A stretch of DNA of 64,000 nucleotides from a virus, in the IMG/VR virus record IMGVR_UViG_3300004481_000271, positions 1-64,000 of that record; one strand, 5' to 3'. The position numbers and the translations under genes are program-made. Shown piece after piece: positions 6,276 to 16,457 of the stretch (position 1 is the stretch's first letter; each line of letters opens with the position of its first letter). Below the pieces are notes generated by a model that was not told the DNA's origin, searched no databases, and saw nothing but the letters and a program-made list of their open reading frames with translations.

Positions 6276-6286
6276 GTTACTGCTCG
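6276..6286 (-). promoter_or_regulatory. CGAGCAGTAAC motif (overlaps stop codon of GNAT gene)
   Basis: Exact copy upstream of ATG 6259. Confidence 0.6.
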
Positions 6287-7554
6287 AAGCCGTTGAAGCC
6301 CTCGGTCCCGACCCCCTCGGCGGCCGGACTCGCCCGAGCCCTCGTCCCGACGGCCTGGGCGCCTCGAAGAGCCTCGAGGTCCTCGCCGGCGACCGCGAGG
6401 TCGTCCTCGAGCTCCGCCCCTTCTCGGGCGTCCTGGGCGTCGGCGGCGACGTCCGCCTCGAGGTCCTCGCCGGCGGCCTCGGTCTCGGTCTCGGCGACGT
6501 CCGCCTCGAGGTCCTCGCCGGCGCCGGCGGGCGCCTCGGCGAAGAGGTTGCCCTGGCGAGGGTCGGCCGGCTCGACCGGCGCGGCCGGCTCGAAGACAAC
6601 GACCCGGCGGAGCTCCTCGAGGGAGAGCCTCGCCGGCGGCGGGGTCGGCTCGGCGGCGGGGAGCTCGATCGCCCTCGAGGCGACGAGCTTCCGGGTCGAC
6701 TTCGAGAGCCCCTTCTCCCAGCGGGTCTTCGGGGAGGTCGGGGCGACGTCGGTCCGCTCCCGGCCCTCGCGAGACCACGACCCGCCGGCGGAGCGGGCGG
6801 TCGGCGTCCAGCCCGCGGCAACGAGGGAGTGACCGCTCTCCTCGTCGAGGGTGTAGGTAACGAGGAGCTTGTAGCCGAGCTCGCGGGTCTTCTTCGCGGC
6901 GGCGGCGTAGAGCTTCGAGACCGCGTTTCGGCGGAGCTCCCGGTGACCCCAGACCGCGACGCGCGTCACTTCGAGGGCGTCCGGGTTCGCCTCGGCGAAG
7001 ACCCTCGAGACCGGGCGGCCGACGACGGCGACCCCGACCTTGACGCTCCCGTTGTAGACCGCGACCGAGAACTTGTGCCCCTGGGGGGCGGGATGGTGCG
7101 AATGGTGCGCGGCGACGTCGGAGAAGACCTCGTCCCGCCAGCCCTTCGGGGAGGCGGCCCGCTTGTGCCCCTTGCCGTCGGAGCCGGCGGGGACCGCGGG
7201 GTCGCGGACGACGAGCCTCGCGACGACGGTCCCGTCGCCCTCGCCGATGACCTCGAGGACCTCGGAGCTCGGGTCGATGATCGCGGCGACAACCTCGACG
7301 GGGAGCCCGTAGGCGTCGGCGTAGCCGTACCACTCGACGGCCTCGGCCTGGGCGGCGCAGCAAGGGCGCCAGGTCAAGAACCGCTCGCCATTCGCGCGGT
7401 CGACGCGGAGGTCGCATCCGAAGATCGCGTCCCCGTCGTCGTAGAGCCACTCGGTCCCGCAGTGCGGGCAAGTCCGGGCGTCGTCGTCGGCGGCGAAGAC
7501 ATCGGCGACCATCGCGGCGATCTCGTCTCGGGTCATCTTGCGAGCGGTGTCCAT
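6277..7554 (-). CDS. XF1762-family (Mom-related GNAT-fold) protein with N-terminal Cys-rich domain and acidic tail
   Basis: HHSHHPAPQGHKFS, GVAVVGRPVSR, LEVTR, SKLYAAA, LVTYTLDEESGHSLVAAGW; N-terminal CPHC...PCC. Confidence 0.8.
   Translation of the reverse strand: MDTARKMTRDEIAAMVADVFAADDDARTCPHCGTEWLYDDGDAIFGCDLRVDRANGERFLTWRPCCAAQAEAVEWYGYADAYGLPVEVVAAIIDPSSEVLEVIGEGDGTVVARLVVRDPAVPAGSDGKGHKRAASPKGWRDEVFSDVAAHHSHHPAPQGHKFSVAVYNGSVKVGVAVVGRPVSRVFAEANPDALEVTRVAVWGHRELRRNAVSKLYAAAAKKTRELGYKLLVTYTLDEESGHSLVAAGWTPTARSAGGSWSREGRERTDVAPTSPKTRWEKGLSKSTRKLVASRAIELPAAEPTPPPARLSLEELRRVVVFEPAAPVEPADPRQGNLFAEAPAGAGEDLEADVAETETEAAGEDLEADVAADAQDAREGAELEDDLAVAGEDLEALRGAQAVGTRARASPAAEGVGTEGFNGFEQ
6371..6522. 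repeat. Intragenic direct repeat encoding AGEDLEADVA
   Basis: 31-nt identical copies 6444-6474 and 6492-6522, partial copy 6371-6391. Confidence 0.85.
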
Positions 7555-7625
7555 GCCTTCTTTATACGGTCCCCGAGGGGACCTTTCAAGCGAAAAACGA
7601 CATCGGTCGCCGAGGGAGATCTCCT
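7552..7625 (-). promoter_or_regulatory. Early promoter cassette copy 3
   Basis: GATGTCGTTTTTCGC-TTGAAA (7584-7589)-GGTCCCCTCGGGGACCG-TATAAA (7561-7566)-6 nt-ATG. Confidence 0.85.
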
Positions 7626-7631
7626 CGCCGG

Positions 7632-8990
7632 TCATGCCGTCCTCCGGGAGGAGGAGCGGGCGCCCTCGAGGACGAGCTCCGCGGCGGCGACCCAGTCCGC
7701 GGGCGAGGGCCTCGAGCCGGCGGCCTCGCGGGCGGCGGCGTTGAAGTCGGTCCGGGTCCAGCCGAGGGCGGCGGCGGCGTCCTGGGCGGCCCGGTAGGCG
7801 GCCCGGAGCCCGGCGACGTCCTGGGCGTCCGCGTCGGCCTCGAAGTCCTGGGCGGCGTCCTGGGCAACCGGCGCGGCGGCCGGCGAGAAGACCGCCCGGA
7901 CCGCGGTCCGCTTCCGCCAGGTGACCGTCCGCTTCTCGGCGGCGGCGGCGTAGAGCTCGTCGAGGATCGAGACGACCCAGTCGCAGTCGATCGGGGCGTC
8001 GCCGTCCTCGTCCTCGCCGGTGAGCCAGGCGGAGGGCGAAGCGTAGCAGGCGGCGCGGTCGGAGCGGGTCACCGTCCGGAAGGCGGCGACGCGGTCGAGG
8101 AGCTCCTTCCGGGCGGAGCGGGTCACGAGCCACTCGTCGACGTTCTCGAGGATCGAGTCGGAGTAATCGAGCTCGCCCTCGACCCCCTCGCCCCAGAGCT
8201 CACCGCGGACGGCCTCGAGGGCGGCGTCGTGGGCGGCGGTGAGGGCGCGGGGTCCGCCTCCCGGGCCGTTCGTCCGACCGACGAGGGAGGTGATCGCGAC
8301 CGAGTCGCAGAAGACCGCGGTCAAGGGCGAGGCGGCCCGGACGGCGGCGACGGCGGCCTCGAAGCGGGGCGACTTCGGCCCGAGCCCGAGGAGGTGAACC
8401 GCGGCCGGACGGACGGTCGAGAGGAGCTCGGCGAGCTCCTCGGCCGACGTCTCGTCCTTCATCATCGGGACGGCGACGACGAAGTCCTCGAAGCCGAGGA
8501 TCTCGGCGGCCTTCCGGTTGAAGTCGACGAGGGAGAGGGCGCCCTTCTGATGCGCGACGAGGATGTTCGCGCCGAGGGCCCGGATCGTCCGGACGCGGTC
8601 GGCGAAGCGGGCGAGGCGGTCGAGGGTCTCGGCTTGATGGGCGACGCAGTCCGGGGCGACGGCGAAGAGCTGGGAGCCGAGGGAGCGGGCGAGCTCCTCG
8701 ACGGCGTCGAGGCGGGCGGCGAAGTCCTCGTCGGAGATCGGCGCGGTGATCGTCGGGACGCCGGCGGGGAAGGTGACCTCGGAGAAGGCTCCGGAGTCCA
8801 TGAAGACCTTCGTCCCGGAGCCGGCGAGTCCGGCGAGAACCTCGGCGGCGTCGAGGCGGAGCTCGACGATCGTCGCGCCGACGTTCATCCCGGCGTCGGA
8901 GAAGCCGAGGATCTCGCCCGGGTGATTCGAGCCGCTCGGGAAGTAGGTCACCGCGTCCGCCGTCCCGTTCATCGTGTCGTCCGTCCTCAT
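7632..8990 (-). CDS. tRNA-guanine transglycosylase (TGT)/DpdA-like protein
   Basis: VFMDSGAFS, APDCVAHQAET, HQKG, VHLLGLG, FCDS motifs in TGT-barrel order. Confidence 0.72.
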   Translation of the reverse strand: MRTDDTMNGTADAVTYFPSGSNHPGEILGFSDAGMNVGATIVELRLDAAEVLAGLAGSGTKVFMDSGAFSEVTFPAGVPTITAPISDEDFAARLDAVEELARSLGSQLFAVAPDCVAHQAETLDRLARFADRVRTIRALGANILVAHQKGALSLVDFNRKAAEILGFEDFVVAVPMMKDETSAEELAELLSTVRPAAVHLLGLGPKSPRFEAAVAAVRAASPLTAVFCDSVAITSLVGRTNGPGGGPRALTAAHDAALEAVRGELWGEGVEGELDYSDSILENVDEWLVTRSARKELLDRVAAFRTVTRSDRAACYASPSAWLTGEDEDGDAPIDCDWVVSILDELYAAAAEKRTVTWRKRTAVRAVFSPAAAPVAQDAAQDFEADADAQDVAGLRAAYRAAQDAAAALGWTRTDFNAAAREAAGSRPSPADWVAAAELVLEGARSSSRRTA

Positions 8991-9160
8991 GCTTCTTTTA
9001 TACGGTCCCCACGGGGACCTAGCAAGAGAAAAACGACATCGCCCCGAAAAAAGATCCCGGGAAGCGATCTCCCCTGGGTGGGCGGTCGGCGTTGTTTTCC
9101 AGTGTTTTATCGGGGCAAGTCGACTTCGGGGCGGAGAGATCTCTTCCGGGCGGTTTCCGG
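8970..9160 (-). promoter_or_regulatory. Early promoter cassette copy 4 (full length)
   Basis: TTGCTA (9020-9025)-GGTCCCCGTGGGGACCG-TATAAA (8997-9002); collinear blocks with copy 2. Confidence 0.85.
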
Positions 9161-9184: not shown

Positions 9185-10339
9185 TCAGGACGACGATCCG
9201 GCGGTCGCCCCGTAGGGCGTGCGGTCGGCGTTCCACGCCTCCCAGTCGGCGTCGGTGACCGACCGCCGACCGTTCGCCTCACGGCGGAGATAGTCCTCGA
9301 AGGGCTCGGGGTTCGCGAAGGGCCCGCGGTAGACCCAGAATTGCCAGAAGAGGTCGACGAGGGTCCGCGTCCAGAACTTCCCGACGAAGCGGTCCGTCCT
9401 CGAGAGCACCCGGAGCGGGGTGTAGCGTTGCGGGTAGACCTTGACCCCGAAGCGGCAGACCTCGCGCATCCGATAGTCAGCCTCCCTCGGGGTGTCCCGG
9501 AAGTTGAAGAGGGCGAGGACAAGCATATCCTCGGCCTTGACCCCGGCAGCGAGGAGGGTCTCGACCGCCCCTTGAAAACGCCCATCCTCCTCGATTCGGT
9601 CGAAGCCAATGCGAAGCCCCCGGTCGACGAAGCGGACGCGGGCGAGGAGCTCCGCGACCTCCGGCGTAACGTATTTGCAGTCGATCCCGGAGTCGATACA
9701 GATCGCCTTCCCCTCCCGATCGAGAACCTCGACGACGTTCCGAAGGTGCTCGGTCCCCCAGCTTGCGAGGTTGTTGTCGCCGAGCATGACGAAGGGACGC
9801 GGGACCGCGAGTTGACGCTCCCATCCGGGGACGATCCTCGGCTCCTTCTCGATCCGCCAGACGGCGCAGTATGGACAACGGTTCGGGCATCCCCGAGTTG
9901 TGAAAGCCCAGGTGTAATCGGCCCATTTCCCCTCGACTTGCCAGTCGATCTCGAGGTCCGGAAGAAGCTCGTCGAGCTCGCCAGAGACCCCGACGAAGAC
10001 GTCCGCCCCGGTAGTCTTCTCGATCGCCTCGGGAACGAGGGAGGCGGCCGGTCCCCCGACGATGACCCTCGAGCTCGGCGCCATCGCGCGGGCGGCCTGG
10101 ACCTCGGCGGAGAGGATCGGGAGGTCGTAGGTGAAGAGGGAGGAGACGAGGACGAGGTCCGCCGGCCGGCCGTCGAAGCTCCGCCCGAAGCGGACCTCGG
10201 AGCCGTTCTCGCGAAGGCGGCGGGCGAGCTTCGCAAGTCCGAGCGGGACATACTTCCGCCCCCAGGGAGGCTCGAGGAGGAAGACGGAGTCGGCGGCGTC
10301 CACGAGCTCGAGGAGCTCCCCCTCGGCGAGACGGGTCAT
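9185..10339 (-). CDS. Cobalamin-binding-domain radical SAM protein
   Basis: N-terminal YVPLGLAKLA...VIVGGPAASL; TTRGCPNRCPYC (CxxxCxxC); GDNNL. Confidence 0.9.
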   Translation of the reverse strand: MTRLAEGELLELVDAADSVFLLEPPWGRKYVPLGLAKLARRLRENGSEVRFGRSFDGRPADLVLVSSLFTYDLPILSAEVQAARAMAPSSRVIVGGPAASLVPEAIEKTTGADVFVGVSGELDELLPDLEIDWQVEGKWADYTWAFTTRGCPNRCPYCAVWRIEKEPRIVPGWERQLAVPRPFVMLGDNNLASWGTEHLRNVVEVLDREGKAICIDSGIDCKYVTPEVAELLARVRFVDRGLRIGFDRIEEDGRFQGAVETLLAAGVKAEDMLVLALFNFRDTPREADYRMREVCRFGVKVYPQRYTPLRVLSRTDRFVGKFWTRTLVDLFWQFWVYRGPFANPEPFEDYLRREANGRRSVTDADWEAWNADRTPYGATAGSSS

Positions 10340-11331
10340 CGGAGGACCTCCTCGAGTGCCCGACCGACGTTGTAGGTCACGGCGGGCGGGACGGCGGCGT
10401 CGAGCCAGCGGCGTTGACGGGTGAAGTCGCCGGCGAGGACGAAGTCGTCGGGGAAGCCGGCGAGGCGCTTCGCCTCGGCGAGGGCGACCCGCCCGAACCG
10501 GTGACGAAGCCCGCCCGGCCCCGTCGTCCGCTGGACCTCCGCCCCGGTCCCCTCGGCGAGGGCGAAGGCGGAAAGTCGCGGCGACGGCCGACGGACGGAG
10601 AGCCCGCGGTCGCGAAAGCCAACGACCCAGGGACAAGCCTCGGCGACCGAGCCCCTCGGCGAGACCGGCGCGGGGAAGGGCGGGTCGGCCCCGAGGTCCT
10701 CGCGAAGCCCGACCCCGAGGAGGAGCTTCTTCGCGACCGGCGCCCCGAGCCAGGACGTCTCGAGCTCCCGGAAGGCGACGCGGTAGCCCGGAGCGGCGAG
10801 GGCGTCCCGAGCGTCCCGGAGGTAGCCCCGGGCCTTCCCTCGGGCGAGGGCAGCGTCGCCCTCGAGGACGAAGGCTCGGGGACGGACCCCGGCGACGAGC
10901 TCGGCGAAGCCGGCGACGAGCTCGTCGGTCCACTCCTCGGCGGCGTCCTCCACCGGACCGGCCTCGGGGTTCTCCTCGTCCTCCTCCCGCTCGAGGCGGG
11001 GAGCAGGCGGCGCCCCCTCGAGGACGTCGAGCTCCCCCTCCCGAACCCCGGCGGCCTCGAGGAGGGACGCGGTGTCGCACTCGGCGAGGAACCTCGCCCG
11101 GAAGACCTCGGCGAGCGGTCCCTCCTCGGCGGGGACCTCGAAGCGGAGCTCGGGGAAGTTGCGGGCGAGGACGGCGCGGAGGAGCTCGTCGCGGTCGTGA
11201 GCCCAAGCGAGGCGGTAGCCCGCCCAGAGCCAGCCGACGGCCGACCCCCCGGCGCCAGCGAAGACGGAGACGACCCGGAGTCCGTTCCGACCGGCGGCGG
11301 AGCGGAGCTCCTCGAGGCTCGGCGGTGTCAC
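10336..11331 (-). CDS. DNA cytosine-C5 methyltransferase fold protein lacking catalytic residues
   Basis: Motif I FAGAGG and IX RLAGFPDDF kept; PPC becomes PPA, ENV becomes EGD, QxRxR lost, GNAV becomes DAAV; GTGA/ATGA coupled. Confidence 0.85.
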   Translation of the reverse strand: MTPPSLEELRSAAGRNGLRVVSVFAGAGGSAVGWLWAGYRLAWAHDRDELLRAVLARNFPELRFEVPAEEGPLAEVFRARFLAECDTASLLEAAGVREGELDVLEGAPPAPRLEREEDEENPEAGPVEDAAEEWTDELVAGFAELVAGVRPRAFVLEGDAALARGKARGYLRDARDALAAPGYRVAFRELETSWLGAPVAKKLLLGVGLREDLGADPPFPAPVSPRGSVAEACPWVVGFRDRGLSVRRPSPRLSAFALAEGTGAEVQRTTGPGGLRHRFGRVALAEAKRLAGFPDDFVLAGDFTRQRRWLDAAVPPAVTYNVGRALEEVLR

Positions 11332-11972
11332 TTCGGCGACCCTCCCCACGAGTACCCACATCTAGGACATTGGAAGTCGTGCCCCTCGTCCGGGTCGACG
11401 GACGGGAACTCCGCCGGAGGAGCCCCGTCGACGTCCGCCTCGGCGGCGGCGAGGAGGGTCTCCGCCAGGCGGTCGATGTCGGCGGCGGTGAAGGCGGTCC
11501 CCCGGAGGGCGGCCTCGCTCTGGGCCTGGAGGTCGACGAGGATCGCGTGAAGTTGCTCGTCATCCCAGCCTCCCCGCTCCGTCAATCGGTTGTGCGCGAG
11601 GATGTAGGCTTCGGCCTCGAGGTCGTCACGGAAGGAGAGCCCTCGAAGGACGGGGACAAGCCACTCTCCCCCCTCGTCGACGCGGATCCGCTCGGGGGGC
11701 TCGACCCCGTCCTCCCGCATCGCCCGGAGGGCGTCGACCCGCCCGTGGCCCTCGACGAGCTTCCCGGTCCTCTCGTCGACGGCGACCGGGTCGGAGAAGC
11801 CGAACCGCTCGATCGAGTCGGCGATCCCGTCCTCGTCGTGACGCTTCGGGTTCCTCGGCCAGCCCTCGACATCGGAGAGCGGGACGTATTCGACGCGGAG
11901 CTCCGCCCGGAGCTCCGTCCGGTCCTCCGGCTCGGCAGTCTTCGCCGTCCGCTTCTTCCTGGGCATACCCAT
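11328..11972 (-). CDS. ParB/sulfiredoxin N-terminal-domain protein with C-terminal CPxCG
   Basis: RNPKRH, SIERFGF, LVEGHGR, AHNRL, CPRCG. Confidence 0.85.
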   Translation of the reverse strand: MGMPRKKRTAKTAEPEDRTELRAELRVEYVPLSDVEGWPRNPKRHDEDGIADSIERFGFSDPVAVDERTGKLVEGHGRVDALRAMREDGVEPPERIRVDEGGEWLVPVLRGLSFRDDLEAEAYILAHNRLTERGGWDDEQLHAILVDLQAQSEAALRGTAFTAADIDRLAETLLAAAEADVDGAPPAEFPSVDPDEGHDFQCPRCGYSWGGSPK

Positions 11973-11989: not shown

Positions 11990-13615
11990 TCAGGATTCTA
12001 AGACACCGTCACGGACCGCGTAACGGGCGACGGCGTCAACCTCGTCGGCGAGCTCGTCCGAGTGAGTCACGAGGACGACGCACCGATCCCGAGCGACGTC
12101 GCGGAGGGCCTCGGAGACGGCGGCGATTCCGTCGCCGTCGAGGGTGTCGAAGACCTCGTCGAACCAGAGCGTCCCCGGGATCGAGCCCGCCGAGGCGGCC
12201 CGAACCTCGGCGAGGGCGAGGAGGAGGGCAACGTCGACCCGTCGACGTTCGCCTCCCGAACAAGCCTTGTAGGCGCCGGCGTGCCCGAGCCCGTGGACCT
12301 CGAGCTCGATCGTGTCGTGGCGGTTCGTCATGTTTCCGCCCCGGGAATCAGACCCGGCGCGGAGCTTCACCGTCGCCCCTGGGAGGAGCCGATCGAGCCA
12401 TGCGTTCGCGACGGACGCGAGTCCGGCCACCGCTCGGGCGACGACGTGAGTCCGAACCCCTTTCAGCCCGAGGACCTTCTCGACAACGGCGAGCTCGGCA
12501 AGCTCGCCCTGGGCGACGGCGAGGTCGTGCCCAAGAGCGGCGAGGTCGGCCTCGAGCTCCTCGACGACCCGCCGAACCTCGTCGGTCTTCTCGGCAGCAC
12601 GGGCGGCCCGCTCCTCCCAGGCGCGGCGGGTCGCGGCGGACTCGCGGAGGGAGGCGAGTCGCTCGGTCAGGACGGCGAGCTCCTCCTCGAGCTCCTCGAG
12701 CTCGGCGGAGCTTGCCTCGAGGGACTCCCTCGTCGCCGGAAGGCGGGTCTCCGCCCAGTCGATCTTCCCCCGGGCCTTCTCGCCGAAGGACGCTCGGGCG
12801 GCGTCCGGGAGGTTCTGTCCGCACGTCGGACACGTCACGAGCTCGGCAAGGCGGGAGAGCTCGCCCTCCGCCTCCCGCTTCGTCCGCTCGAGGGTCTCGA
12901 GAAAGGTCTCGGTCTTCCGGACCGTCGCGGCGAGCTCCTTCCGATCCTCGGCGGCGTTTCTGGCCTGGCGGGCGACGCGGTTGAGGTCGACGGTCGGAGG
13001 TTCCGGCCCGAGGGCCTCGCCGGCGTCGACGAGCCGCTTCCGCTCGACCTCGAGCTTCGCCTCGAGGCGGCCGACCTTCCGCTCGAGCTCGGCGGCCCGG
13101 AGCTTGACCCCGCTCGCCTCGGCCCGGCAGGCGACGAGCCCGCGGTCGAAGACGTCGAGCCCGAGCATTCCCTCGAGGAGCCGCTTCCGCTCGCCGTCGG
13201 TTGCGAGGGAGAAGGTCAAGAGGTCCTGGGAAGAGAAGACGGAAGCCCTCCGCCAGGCATCGAACGAGCCGACGATCGGGTCGAGCTCCTCTTGCGCCTT
13301 CGTCGCGGTCTCGAAGTCCCGGAGGTCGGAGGTCGAGAGCCCCCAGCGGACCGCGTTCGTCTTCGCTCCGTCCCGCTCCCGGAGGGCGACGACGCGGTCG
13401 GTCTCGACCCGAACCGTCGCGAGGGTGCCGTCGGTCCACCATGGAGTACCCCGGAGGGTCTTCCCCCAGAGGGCGACGGCGACGGCCTCGACGAGGGTCG
13501 ACTTCCCGGCGCCGTTCGGACCGGTGATGACGACGACCCCGGAGTCTGGGAGCTCGAGCTTGATCTCCCGGTGCCCCATGAAGGAGCCGGTCCGGATCGT
13601 GCGAACGTGGATCAT
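11990..13615 (-). CDS. sbcC: SbcC/Rad50/gp46-like ATPase
   Basis: GPNGAGKS, coiled coil with CPTCG zinc hook, SGGE, FDEVFD. Confidence 0.92.
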   Translation of the reverse strand: MIHVRTIRTGSFMGHREIKLELPDSGVVVITGPNGAGKSTLVEAVAVALWGKTLRGTPWWTDGTLATVRVETDRVVALRERDGAKTNAVRWGLSTSDLRDFETATKAQEELDPIVGSFDAWRRASVFSSQDLLTFSLATDGERKRLLEGMLGLDVFDRGLVACRAEASGVKLRAAELERKVGRLEAKLEVERKRLVDAGEALGPEPPTVDLNRVARQARNAAEDRKELAATVRKTETFLETLERTKREAEGELSRLAELVTCPTCGQNLPDAARASFGEKARGKIDWAETRLPATRESLEASSAELEELEEELAVLTERLASLRESAATRRAWEERAARAAEKTDEVRRVVEELEADLAALGHDLAVAQGELAELAVVEKVLGLKGVRTHVVARAVAGLASVANAWLDRLLPGATVKLRAGSDSRGGNMTNRHDTIELEVHGLGHAGAYKACSGGERRRVDVALLLALAEVRAASAGSIPGTLWFDEVFDTLDGDGIAAVSEALRDVARDRCVVLVTHSDELADEVDAVARYAVRDGVLES

Positions 13616-13824
13616 CGGCGCCCCCCGTGGTGGGCCCCGCAGAAGGGGCAGTCGAACCCTCGGCCGGAGTTGACCGGGCAATCGCTGGGCGGCCGGATCG
13701 GGCGGTCGTAGGGCGAGGCGGTGTTGACCTGCATCCTTCGACCCGGAAGGAGGGCGCAGCTTGCCGCCATGATCTCGGAGTCGACCCGATAGAACGGGCA
13801 GCGGAGACAATCGGCTCGGGTCAT
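13612..13824 (-). CDS. Small Cys-rich protein
   Basis: ATGA coupled both sides; CLRC...C...CP...CPFC. Confidence 0.55.
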   Translation of the reverse strand: MTRADCLRCPFYRVDSEIMAASCALLPGRRMQVNTASPYDRPIRPPSDCPVNSGRGFDCPFCGAHHGGRR

Positions 13825-14969
13825 AGGACCCCCGCGAAACGTCGGCAGAGCTCGAGGACGCGGTCGCGGTCGACCCCGGCGGGGAGCTTCATCTTCCCGA
13901 CGTAGACGGCGAGGGCCTCGGCGAGAGACTCGGCGGAGCGGGCGGCGGCGGCGGCCTCGCGAGCTTCCTCGCTCGCGTCCTCGACGTCGAGGGTAACAAC
14001 CCCCCGATGGACCGTCCCCCGCTCGACGAGGACCCGGAGGTCGTCCCGGGCATCGCCGGAGACCTCCGGCGGCGCGAGCCACTCGGCGAAGAGCTTCGCG
14101 TCCCTGGGCACCCGACGGGCGAGCTCCTCGAGCTCCTCGGAGCCGTCCGGCCCCCGGACGCGGACGAACCGCGGACCGGGGACCTCGAGAACCTCGACCT
14201 TCGGCCAGTCGACGAGAAGCATTCGACCCCGGTCCTCGACCCCGGCGTCACCCCAGCCCGCGGGCGCGAGGGCCCCGACCTGGACCCCCTTCGCTCCGCC
14301 GAAGTCGTAGGTCGAGAGGTCGTGCCAGTGGCCGGCGACGACAAGGTCGAAGCGAAACTCGTCGACGAGCTCGCCGAGGGCGGAGAAGTCGATCGAGCTC
14401 GGGTCCGCGCGGAGGTAGGAGGGCGCGGAGCTCGTCGCGATCCCGAGGTGGACGGCGAGGACCCGGAGAGGGTCGAGGGAGGCTTGACGGGAATCCCTTC
14501 CCCCCTCCGGGGCCTCGCCCTCCGCCGCGAGAATCGCGGAGCGGAGCCAGCCCGCGGCGGCCCCCGTCCGGTGAGGGACGAGAAGGACCTCGACGTCGCC
14601 GAGGCGGTCGAGGGTCGGACGGTCGACGACCTGGGAAACGTAGCGGAGCGGACCGAGGGCATGGTCCCCAGGAGCGTCGGAGATCGAATCGTGGTTCCCC
14701 GGCATCACGACGACCCGGACCCCTCGCTTCGCGGACTCGGCGAGGACGTCTTGCACGGCGGCGATCACCCGAGGGCCTGGGGACGTCGTGTCGAAGAGGT
14801 CGCCGAGGATGTAGAGGCGGGCGGCGCCCCGCTCCTTCGCCTCCCAGCAAGCCCAGCGGAGGGACTCGATCGCGAGCTTGCACCGCTCGTTCAGTCCGAC
14901 CTCCGTCACCCCACCGAGTCGCTTGTGGTTCGCGATGTGAACGTCAGCAACAAGGGCGATCGCGGTCAT
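13821..14969 (-). CDS. sbcD: SbcD/Mre11/gp47-like metallophosphoesterase nuclease
   Basis: ADVH, GDLFD, GNHD, GHWH motifs. Confidence 0.92.
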   Translation of the reverse strand: MTAIALVADVHIANHKRLGGVTEVGLNERCKLAIESLRWACWEAKERGAARLYILGDLFDTTSPGPRVIAAVQDVLAESAKRGVRVVVMPGNHDSISDAPGDHALGPLRYVSQVVDRPTLDRLGDVEVLLVPHRTGAAAGWLRSAILAAEGEAPEGGRDSRQASLDPLRVLAVHLGIATSSAPSYLRADPSSIDFSALGELVDEFRFDLVVAGHWHDLSTYDFGGAKGVQVGALAPAGWGDAGVEDRGRMLLVDWPKVEVLEVPGPRFVRVRGPDGSEELEELARRVPRDAKLFAEWLAPPEVSGDARDDLRVLVERGTVHRGVVTLDVEDASEEAREAAAAARSAESLAEALAVYVGKMKLPAGVDRDRVLELCRRFAGVL

Positions 14970-14990
14970 CTCGAGGACCTCCTCGATCCC

Positions 14991-15020
14991 GTTACTGCTC
15001 GGCGAGCTCGAAGGCGTCAA
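14991..15020 (-). promoter_or_regulatory. TTGACG-17 nt-CAGTAAC promoter (CGAGCAGTAAC motif)
   Basis: Motif 14991-15001 with TTGACG 17 nt upstream of CAGTAA. Confidence 0.65.
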
Positions 15021-16048
15021 GCGTCGGGAGCGTCGGCGAGGTCGACGGCGTCCGGACCCTCGTCCTCGAGGTCCTCGGCGACGGTGTCGGAAGCCCCGAG
15101 GAGGTCGAGAGACTGGCCAGAGGCGAGGGCGGCGCGAACCTTCTCGAGGTTGGGCTGGGATAGACGAGCGGAGTCCCCGAGGAGCTTCTTCTCCTTCCCC
15201 CACTCGAGGAGACTCCACTCGTTATCCCAGCCCCGCTCGAAGTCCAGGCGGAGGCGGGCCTTCCGGAAGGGGAGCCCGATCTTCGACTTCTGGGCGCGGA
15301 CGGTCGTGTGAATCCCGGCCGGCTCCGTCCCCTTCTTGAACGACTTCCCCCGCCAGAACTGAAGACGCCAGGACGCGAGGAACTTCAGGGCGTGACCCCC
15401 GGGGGTCGTCTCGGTCGGTCCGAAGATGACCCCGATCTTGTCCCGAAGTTGGTTGATGATCACGACGGCGGTCGACTTCTCTCGGGCGAGTCGACCGAGT
15501 AGCGGAAGCGCCTCGGACATCAGGCGGGCCCGCTTCCCGACAAGCCCCGCGTCCCCGACCTTCTTCCCGGCCTGGCCGGCGAGCTCGGTCGCGGCGAGAG
15601 AATCCCAGACGACGACGTTCGGCCCGACCCCTCGAGGGATCGCATCGAAGACGGCGCGGATCGCCTCGAGGACCTCCTCGATCGTCGCCGGCTCGGCGAG
15701 GATGAGCTCGTCGAGGTTGACCCCGAAGACCGGAGCTCGGGAGAGCTCGAGGGTCTTCTCGGTCTCGATGAGGGCGGCGACCCCGCCGGCCCGCTGGGCG
15801 CCGGCGAGGCAGGCGAAGCCGAAGGACGTCTTCCCGGCCCCCTCGTCGGAGTAGACCTCGCCGAGCCGGCCGGCAGGTATCCCGCCGACCCCGAGGACGT
15901 AGCGGTCGACAACCTCGACCCCGGTCGGGATGACCGACCGAACCGCCGAGGAGGACCCCTCCCTCGCGAGGCGGGCGGTCCCCTTCGGGAGCTTCGCCCG
16001 GATCGCACCGAGAACCTTCTCGACGGCCTTTTCACGTTTCGTTGGCAT
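15017..16048 (-). CDS. recA: RecA/UvsX recombinase
   Basis: IPTG, GGIPAGR, EGAGKTS, VVWDS, INQLRDKIG, TTPGGHALKF. Confidence 0.95.
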   Translation of the reverse strand: MPTKREKAVEKVLGAIRAKLPKGTARLAREGSSSAVRSVIPTGVEVVDRYVLGVGGIPAGRLGEVYSDEGAGKTSFGFACLAGAQRAGGVAALIETEKTLELSRAPVFGVNLDELILAEPATIEEVLEAIRAVFDAIPRGVGPNVVVWDSLAATELAGQAGKKVGDAGLVGKRARLMSEALPLLGRLAREKSTAVVIINQLRDKIGVIFGPTETTPGGHALKFLASWRLQFWRGKSFKKGTEPAGIHTTVRAQKSKIGLPFRKARLRLDFERGWDNEWSLLEWGKEKKLLGDSARLSQPNLEKVRAALASGQSLDLLGASDTVAEDLEDEGPDAVDLADAPDA

Positions 16049-16457
16049 GAGCCTCTCGATGATGCTCGGAGCATAACCAGCGGACCGCGAGCGGACTCGA
16101 ATAGTCGTCGTGGTGAGCCTCTGCCGGTTCAGCCCCGCAAACCTCACACGGGCACCGTTCGAGCCTCCCATCTCGGAGCGCGTTCCCGACCGCCGTTCTT
16201 GCTCTGTAGCGTTCCGGCTCCCGCGACCTGTAGCGGAGTTGCGCCTCCCGTTGCCGCGCTTTCCATCCGGGAGTCTTCGATCGGTCTCGGTCGTAGGCGC
16301 GAATTCGCTCGAGGTTCGCAAGCCTATTCCGACGCGCATCCACGCGACAGCAAGCCTTGCATTTTCCGAGGTGTCCGTCCGCCGTCTCGGGGTGTTGATA
16401 GAAGTCCGTCAAGGGTCGAAGCTCCCCACACCGAAAGCACCGCTTCTCGCTCTCCAT
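16032..16457 (-). CDS. HNH/His-Cys endonuclease-like protein
   Basis: CFRC...FY...CKAC; CEVC...AHHDDYS.PL.VRWLC..HH. Confidence 0.75.
   Translation of the reverse strand: MESEKRCFRCGELRPLTDFYQHPETADGHLGKCKACCRVDARRNRLANLERIRAYDRDRSKTPGWKARQREAQLRYRSREPERYRARTAVGNALRDGRLERCPCEVCGAEPAEAHHDDYSSPLAVRWLCSEHHREAHANET

Follow-up and report, generated by a model that had tools for sequence, protein, structure and literature searches.

A conserved, apparently inactive cytosine-5 DNA methylase as a candidate partner of a radical-SAM enzyme in a phage operon

Why would a phage keep a full-length cytosine-5 (C5) DNA methylase that appears unable to methylate, and keep it translationally coupled to a radical S-adenosylmethionine (SAM) enzyme? 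The question is raised by a stretch of 64,000 nucleotides, hereafter the window, which is the first 64 kb (positions 1 to 64,000) of the IMG/VR virus record IMGVR_UViG_3300004481_000271. The record is 108,941 bp long and rated complete by CheckV, and the GC content of the window is about 70%. The locus consists of three minus-strand genes. Direct reading of the sequence showed that they are translationally coupled, each of the two downstream starts overlapping the preceding stop, and that the GTGA and ATGA overlaps described in the first-pass annotation are each preceded by a GGAGG sequence:

11328-11972, minus strand: ParB-N-like protein, 214 amino acids (aa), with a C-terminal CPxC...W motif (PHROG 620 and alignment).
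11328-11331, minus strand: GTGA stop/start overlap of the ParB-like and methylase-like genes, with GGAGG at 11341-11345, 9 nt before the GTG.
10336-11331, minus strand: C5-methylase-like protein, predicted to be catalytically dead, 331 aa from the GTG (PF00145 and AlphaFold2 fold).
10336-10339, minus strand: ATGA stop/start overlap of the methylase-like and radical-SAM genes, with GGAGG at 10347-10351, 7 nt before the ATG.
9185-10339, minus strand: radical-SAM enzyme, 384 aa, with an N-terminal Rossmann (B12-binding-like) domain (PF02310, phrog_9298, AlphaFold2 and Foldseek).

The methylase-like gene also has an alternative in-frame start, an ATG at 11361, which would give a protein of 341 aa. 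As an answer to the question we lean, somewhat beyond an even chance, towards an inert methylase-derived adaptor that is kept as the non-catalytic subunit of a DNA-acting radical-SAM enzyme.

The ancestry of the middle protein is clear. It matches PF00145 at 1.7e-11 (44.5 bits against a cut-off of 22) and DNA methyltransferase among the PHROGs at 5e-19, and its AlphaFold2 model, with a predicted template modelling score (pTM) of 0.80, has the C5-methylase fold. The closest solved structures found with Foldseek were phage CmoX (8yf3), M.HaeIII and M.HhaI, the matches to 8yf3, 3ubt and the M.HhaI series having E values from 5e-17 to 1e-11. The gene had been described as full length with the FAGAGG motif and the motif IX and X scaffold intact. 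We found the same: motif I FAGAGG, the motif II acid (D56), motif IX RLAGFPDDF and the VPP part of motif X are all retained. The protein thus shares fold, motif I, motif IX and VPP with the prokaryotic and phage C5-methylases, and in its short variable region it is like active relatives of 342 aa, P0007 among them. The catalytic motifs, in contrast, have been lost, both in the window copy and in two relatives, P0005 and P0006, which form a clade with it. Two of the altered sites lie side by side:

11002-11010, minus strand: motif IV remnant PPA, Cys to Ala (ccg cct gct), by direct read and alignment.
10924-11001, minus strand: acidic replacement of the catalytic loop, residues 121-146, of a length like that in active relatives.

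The PPC of motif IV reads PPA in the window copy and P0005 and PVL in P0006. The ENV of motif VI reads EGD, SGD and SSP in the same order, and the QxRxR of motif VIII reads VAKKL in the window copy and HSRRL in the other two. Motif X GN(A/S)V has become DAAV in the window copy, and its GN is gone in all three, as is the Asp of motif III. The claim that every catalytic motif had been replaced is therefore accurate for motifs IV, VIII and X and overstated for motif VI, where the window copy keeps the Glu. Nor is the acidic stretch an insert, as had been proposed: it takes the place of the catalytic loop with little change in length (24 aa, versus 26 aa in the active relative P0007), and a true insert of about 15 aa sits earlier, between motifs II and III. 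Asp and Glu make up roughly half of the replaced loop, whose acidic character is common to 3/3 dead copies. Confidence in the AlphaFold2 model is low only in this loop and in the short variable region, with a predicted local distance difference test score (pLDDT) below 50 at residues 123-134. P0005 contains no Cys anywhere in the protein, which excludes covalent C5 catalysis for the dead clade. Lacking the Cys, the motif VIII Arg and Gln, the motif X GN and the motif III Asp, and carrying an acidic loop instead, the window protein is a homolog of the C5-methylases and not a functional member of the family. Judged from its sequence, the middle gene is a former cytosine-5 DNA methylase that is unable to methylate.

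The FAGAGG, D56 and ENV Glu kept in the window copy would suit a protein that still serves as an enzyme or cofactor carrier, either by passing or presenting SAM or by Cys-independent transfer to an intermediate made by the radical-SAM enzyme. We give this a small chance. The motif III Asp is lost in 3/3 copies, motif I has changed to NAGVGT in P0006, and the ENV Glu is missing from both P0005 and P0006, so that none of FAGAGG, the motif III Asp and the ENV Glu is conserved across the clade. The loss in motif III and the decay of motif I in P0006 also make the SAM-presenting role suggested in the first-pass annotation doubtful.

The dead state is rare. A word-indexed search of 5.8 billion protein clusters returned 21 relatives of the dead methylase, among which the same losses occur only in P0005 (54% identical to the window copy by BLAST, 57% in alignments) and P0006 (47% by BLAST, 50% in alignments); 18/18 other relatives are catalytically intact. 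No other dead member emerged when 1.84 billion representatives were searched exhaustively with a profile: beyond the clade the score falls from 524 bits to 204 bits, and 146/146 of the next-best representatives keep the Cys, the Glu and both Arg. Locus searches of viral contigs and of metagenome contigs found no relatives of the dead methylase. The three dead copies are full length, with about 120 invariant columns, in-frame indels and clade-specific blocks, and conservation among them is highest at residues 181-200, followed by residues 301-340 in the motif IX-X region. In the tree they form one clade with a long stem and shorter internal branches, nested among active methylases, a shape that fits one ancient loss followed by continued constraint and not ongoing decay, as far as these alignments can tell. 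Copies that have diverged this far, remain intact and share their losses are therefore maintained, not decaying. On a side note, a 7,794-bp Logan contig carries a 205-aa call (P0004) with the sequence of residues 137-341 of the dead methylase, save for the initial Val, which is called Met. A Logan contig of that same length, 7,794 bp, carries a homolog of the radical-SAM enzyme (P0025, only 73% identical to that of the window); should the two share one contig, a sharp mosaic boundary would lie at the methylase/radical-SAM junction.

These findings bear on the possibility of a relic in decay, whose frame would stay open by chance at 70% GC or only because the radical-SAM gene depends on the upstream frame for its translation. 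Decay sits poorly with three lineages at 50-57% identity that keep full length, in-frame indels and clade-specific blocks. The GC content at third codon positions (GC3), 0.90 in the methylase-like open reading frame (ORF) and 0.89 in the ParB-like ORF, matches that of the other real genes of the window, and the confident predicted interface described below falls on the conserved C-terminal part of the protein. We therefore regard a relic as very unlikely, even with long spurious ORFs common in the window, residues 123-134 and 250-285 modelling poorly and the stem branch being long.

The second partner, the radical-SAM enzyme, belongs to a family that no NCBIfam or Pfam model claims, all NCBIfam models of B12 radical-SAM enzymes scoring far below their cut-offs. 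The protein matches PF02310 (B12-binding) at 6.7e-8, with 32.8 bits against a cut-off of 32.1, PF04055 at 22.5 bits, below the cut-off of 29.5, and phrog_9298, 'radical SAM domain protein', at 3.8e-28. Its iron-sulfur motif is as follows:

9866-9889, minus strand: CxxxCxxC iron-sulfur motif, residues 151-158 (C151, C155, C158), invariant in 54/54 aligned homologs.

The AlphaFold2 model (pLDDT 93) places an N-terminal Rossmann domain before a radical-SAM core, and its Foldseek neighbours are MtaB/MiaB, MgmA, TsrM, AprD4, CysS, TokK and OxsB; a sequence search of the PDB with the radical-SAM profile gave nothing significant. The N-terminal domain contains no Cys, so the enzyme is not a methylthiotransferase, an identity that we considered and ruled out. 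The earlier designation as a B12 radical-SAM enzyme thus holds for the radical-SAM part, with its invariant CxxxCxxC core and clear fold. The 'B12' part is an assignment at the level of the modelled fold, PF02310 being barely over its cut-off. AprD4 and the MiaB-type enzymes have the Rossmann plus radical-SAM layout without cobalamin. We collected 81 homologs, mostly metagenomic, and 79 IMG/VR loci. Among cultured phages, relatives were confined to Marinitoga camini virus 1 and the LoVEphage group, and these are distant; cellular genomes gave two distant matches, in metagenome-assembled genomes of Bathyarchaeia, and for the close clade the metagenome contigs held nothing closer than 45% identity. 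One homolog, P0085, carries an intein inside the CxxxCxxC loop. The family (phrog_9298) is phage-borne, uncharacterised and methylase-associated.

The association with methylases takes several forms, relatives of the radical-SAM gene being recurrently fused to a DNA methylase gene, overlapping one or lying directly beside it. Seven protein clusters are natural fusions of the radical-SAM enzyme with a whole or half C5-methylase. In P0253-P0255 (680 aa) a complete, catalytically intact C5-methylase is fused N-terminally, and in P0033, P0044, P0052 and P0067 the C-terminal half of a C5-methylase (target recognition domain or variable region, motif IX and motif X) is fused C-terminally. A separate C5-methylase gene abuts the radical-SAM gene both in viral and metagenomic loci of the close family (L010, L033, L022, L024, L025, L032, L036, L083 and L085) and in distant relatives (L065, L066, L072 and L077). 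N6/N4 methylase genes abut it in eight further close-family loci, and ParB_N::N6_N4 methylase fusions do so in L061 and L070. The triad of the window, a radical-SAM enzyme, a ParB-N protein with the same Cys-containing tail and a C5-methylase, recurs in L001/L034, where the methylase is of the active type and carries an extra module made of variable region, motif IX and motif X. A suggestion that loss of the Cys would go together with the radical-SAM gene turned out the other way round: all other radical-SAM-linked C5-methylases that we aligned keep the Cys and the catalytic motifs, and the dead state is therefore peculiar to the lineage of the window.

Several details of these loci are worth recording. 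The extra C-terminal module appears at L001:9694-11220 as an N-terminal fusion beside a full active methylase, and at L022:9037-9408 as an ORF of its own, 124 aa long, that follows the radical-SAM gene. Docking to the radical-SAM enzyme may be the dedicated function of this module. In L024 (7107-7995), L025 and L036 the abutting methylase lies in two overlapping frames, an N-terminal half with motifs I-VIII and a C-terminal half with motifs IX-X, owing to a frameshift, a split gene or a faulty assembly. In L083 (2826-4637) the C5-methylase encoded directly upstream of the radical-SAM gene carries an intein at its Pro-Cys motif.

The third protein of the triad had been called ParB-N, and the name stands. 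Pfam gave no match for this protein (P0003); it matches PHROG 620 at 2e-32 and PHROG 723 at 3e-25, and it aligns with the PF02195-positive domains of L061, L070 and L001, with N41, P42, G75 and R78 of the NPR-type and GxxR motifs invariant. ParB-like genes adjoin relatives of the radical-SAM gene in L001, L004 and L089.

Complex prediction for the methylase-like protein with the radical-SAM enzyme gave an interaction prediction score from aligned errors (ipSAE) of 0.84, 0.85 and 0.81, compared with 0.01 for the best of three controls. The runs share at least 94% of contacts, and the pLDDT of the partner is 80. The tool's mark is reached by 58/80 solved complexes and 2/110 mismatched pairs, counts that hold only roughly here because our own alignments were used. 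Residues 278-316 of the methylase-like protein face residues 24-28, 52-58 and 74-88 of the radical-SAM enzyme, with a few other contacts:

10414-10530, minus strand: motif IX region, residues 278-316, predicted contact surface for the radical-SAM enzyme (complex prediction).

The motif IX region is thus predicted to dock on the N-terminal Rossmann domain of the radical-SAM enzyme. The contacting part is the same part that is fused in P0033, P0044, P0052 and P0067, and it is among the best-conserved stretches of the dead clade. The earlier proposal of a repurposed pseudoenzyme that partners the radical-SAM enzyme finds computational support in the shared losses, the clade tree, the fusions and adjacency, and an ipSAE of 0.84 compared with 0.01. 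A partner methylase that cannot methylate, is conserved nonetheless and is predicted to bind argues for use of the methylase fold as an adaptor. Together, the fusions, overlaps and predicted interface favour a real but optional partnership that uses a generic docking surface.

The same evidence bears on what the radical-SAM enzyme acts upon. It might work off DNA, modifying a protein (possibly its methylase-like partner) or the nucleotide or cofactor pool, in which case the methylase link would reflect co-location or a regulatory contact. The closest solved folds do include the protein-modifying MgmA and the tRNA-modifying MiaB/MtaB, and many family members lie among clamp, polymerase and helicase genes without a methylase. 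We nevertheless consider a non-DNA substrate unlikely, given fusions in two orientations to C5-methylase parts that include the DNA-recognition half, the recurrent abutting of two chemically different classes of DNA methylase and of ParB-N, and the confident predicted interface. Another proposal is that the protein is a decoy for host restriction systems, its acidic loop imitating DNA and trapping host nucleases or methyl-directed restriction enzymes. A replaced loop that is about half Asp and Glu, and acidic in every dead copy, would suit such a DNA mimic. The coupling, the fusions and the predicted interface would all be left unexplained, however. The overall charge is unremarkable for this phage, its radical-SAM enzyme having a similar isoelectric point, and no likeness to known mimics turned up, although none was searched for. 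A decoy has no specific support, and it strikes us as scarcely credible, the least probable of the explanations considered here. Overall protein charge was also considered as a gauge of lost DNA binding and discarded as uninformative.

For the adaptor that we prefer, the following mechanism can be proposed. The radical-SAM enzyme would be the catalytic core that acts on phage DNA, and the methylase scaffold would serve in DNA binding or targeting, in base presentation, or in stabilising the radical-SAM enzyme. The ParB-N-like protein, coupled upstream and recurrent near relatives, may aid in loading or targeting the complex on DNA. In most relatives the active partner methylase would also methylate, and in the lineage of the window the scaffolding role alone would have been retained. 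With the radical-SAM enzyme as the core and the methylase fold as an add-on, the methyl transfer of the add-on can be lost.

A number of observations weigh against this proposal. Among the three clade members, adjacency of the dead methylase to a radical-SAM gene is known from the window copy alone. The SAM pocket is partly degenerate, the Asp of motif III being lost. The acidic catalytic loop makes canonical DNA clamping by the pseudo-methylase doubtful, and a purely structural or regulatory role is therefore a live alternative within the same explanation. High GC lowers the weight of the open frame as evidence of selection, and the complex score may partly reflect what the model learned from natural fusion proteins. 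In the L035 record (83,238 bp, with direct terminal repeats, CheckV 100%) the radical-SAM gene lies among replication genes and no PF00145 gene is present, so the enzyme can work without a C5-methylase; four other, partial records with the radical-SAM gene also lack PF00145. Finally, the partner methylases are polyphyletic, comprising several unrelated C5 lineages and the N6/N4 class, a pattern that would suit loosely coupled accessory genes no less than a generic docking surface.

The surroundings of the three genes place them in a longer unit. The first-pass annotation had called them a three-gene operon; the coupling stands, and they close a longer series of genes read in one direction, RecA-SbcD-SbcC-ParB-methylase-radical SAM, within a minus-strand run devoted to replication, recombination and modification, of which the upstream replication/recombination members and the putative end are:

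15017-16339, minus strand: RecA.
13821-15218, minus strand: SbcD-type phosphoesterase.
11990-13810, minus strand: SbcC-type ATPase.
9059-9074, minus strand: terminator-like hairpin, about 110 nt past the radical-SAM stop, inside a repeated cassette (8970-9160).

The hairpin lies in the roughly 180 nt between the radical-SAM gene and the next gene (7632-9002), and it is only a plausible end of the unit, since the region has no more hairpins than expected from shuffled sequence. The next gene (7632-9002, minus strand) bears a tentative TGT/DpdA-like label and has no match in Pfam, NCBIfam or PHROGs at the thresholds used. A functional link to this DpdA-like gene was considered and rejected: a homolog lies near 0 of the radical-SAM relatives, and the terminator-like site and the intergenic cassette intervene. 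Beyond it lies a Mom-like gene of the XF1762 family (6277-7560, minus strand; NF045478 at 3e-39, phrog_1384 at 3e-24 and a weak Pfam Mom match), followed further downstream by a PAPS-reductase-like gene. A Mom-like gene in this place, second after the operon, suggests that the island encodes another DNA-modification function, independent of the first. The whole record contains no second PF00145 gene, and the complete genome no thymidylate-synthase-like or ThyX gene. In keeping with the latter, we rejected a phage route to 5-methyl- or 5-hydroxymethyl-deoxycytidine at the nucleotide level, which would have made catalysis by the methylase redundant. With neither another C5-methylase nor a thymidylate-synthase-type gene, 5-methylcytosine (5mC) made by the phage is an unlikely substrate here.

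What chemistry, then, might the module carry out? We class it with the phage DNA-modification modules, and there is a sizeable chance that its chemistry is new. More specifically, and as a tentative suggestion short of an expectation, the radical-SAM family could be an oxygen-independent modifier of DNA bases that installs a modification new to DNA, with the base presented by the C5-methylase scaffold; C-methylation or functionalisation at or near cytosine C5 would be examples. If so, the dead methylase would be a natural separation-of-function variant, indicating that the role of the partner is scaffolding or base presentation and not prior methylation. The family would also be a second case of radical-SAM enzymes that modify DNA, wired to methylases, unrelated to the first (M6 gp53, below) and without a need for oxygen. 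New chemistry and tools for epigenetic sequencing increasingly come from the hypermodification of phage DNA, and an operon that can be expressed without a confounding 5mC background offers a clean experimental handle.

What is new here is that the dead methylase is conserved, that it forms a triad with ParB and that an interface is predicted; full-text searches of the literature turned up no account of DNA methylases coupled to a radical-SAM enzyme. Class B radical-SAM enzymes (MgmA, TsrM, CysS, TokK and OxsB) and the look-alike AprD4 share the Rossmann domain and CxxxCxxC core with the window enzyme (Foldseek E values from 7e-11 to 9e-6), which at 384 aa is much shorter than most class B enzymes and whose binding of cobalamin is putative. 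We know of no class B (cobalamin-dependent) member that acts on DNA. The ParB_N::DNA methylase fusions (phrog_498; L061 and L070) tie the same type of ParB-N domain to a DNA methylase module, whereas in the window ParB-N stands alone as a protein of 214 aa, with a short tail that contains Cys, and is coupled to a dead methylase of the C5 type instead of the N6/N4 type. At the level of modules the nearest system is a phage C5-methylase genetically coupled to a TET/JBP dioxygenase, with ParB genes in some contigs (Burke et al. 2021, PMC8256090). The second enzyme of those modules acts on cytosine C5 in DNA. In contrast, the second enzyme of the window is an oxygen-independent radical-SAM protein, physically fused to the methylase in some relatives, and since the methylase is dead in this phage no 5mC substrate is made, unlike in the TET/JBP modules. 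By the account of Lee et al. (2021, PMC8989533), M6 gp53, an isomerase resembling spore photoproduct lyase (SPL) that takes part in thymidine hypermodification, was the first radical-SAM enzyme known to modify DNA and the only one for which this has been shown. It is likewise a phage radical-SAM enzyme acting on DNA bases, but it belongs to the unrelated SPL-like subfamily, has no Rossmann N-terminal domain and is tied to a pathway of 5-hydroxymethyldeoxyuridine (5-hmdU) kinase and aGPT-Pplase, not to methylases. For the methylase-like protein itself the nearest analogy lies outside the phages. Dnmt3L, a eukaryotic paralogue of the C5-methylases without catalytic activity, serves as a binding partner. 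Both proteins have a conserved C5-methylase fold that has lost its catalytic motifs, and the window protein would, like Dnmt3L, work via protein-protein contact. The partner of Dnmt3L is an active methylase of the same family, whereas the dead methylase of this phage is predicted to bind a radical-SAM enzyme and is of independent origin. Use of the methylase fold as an adaptor would thus be a prokaryotic and viral parallel to Dnmt3L.

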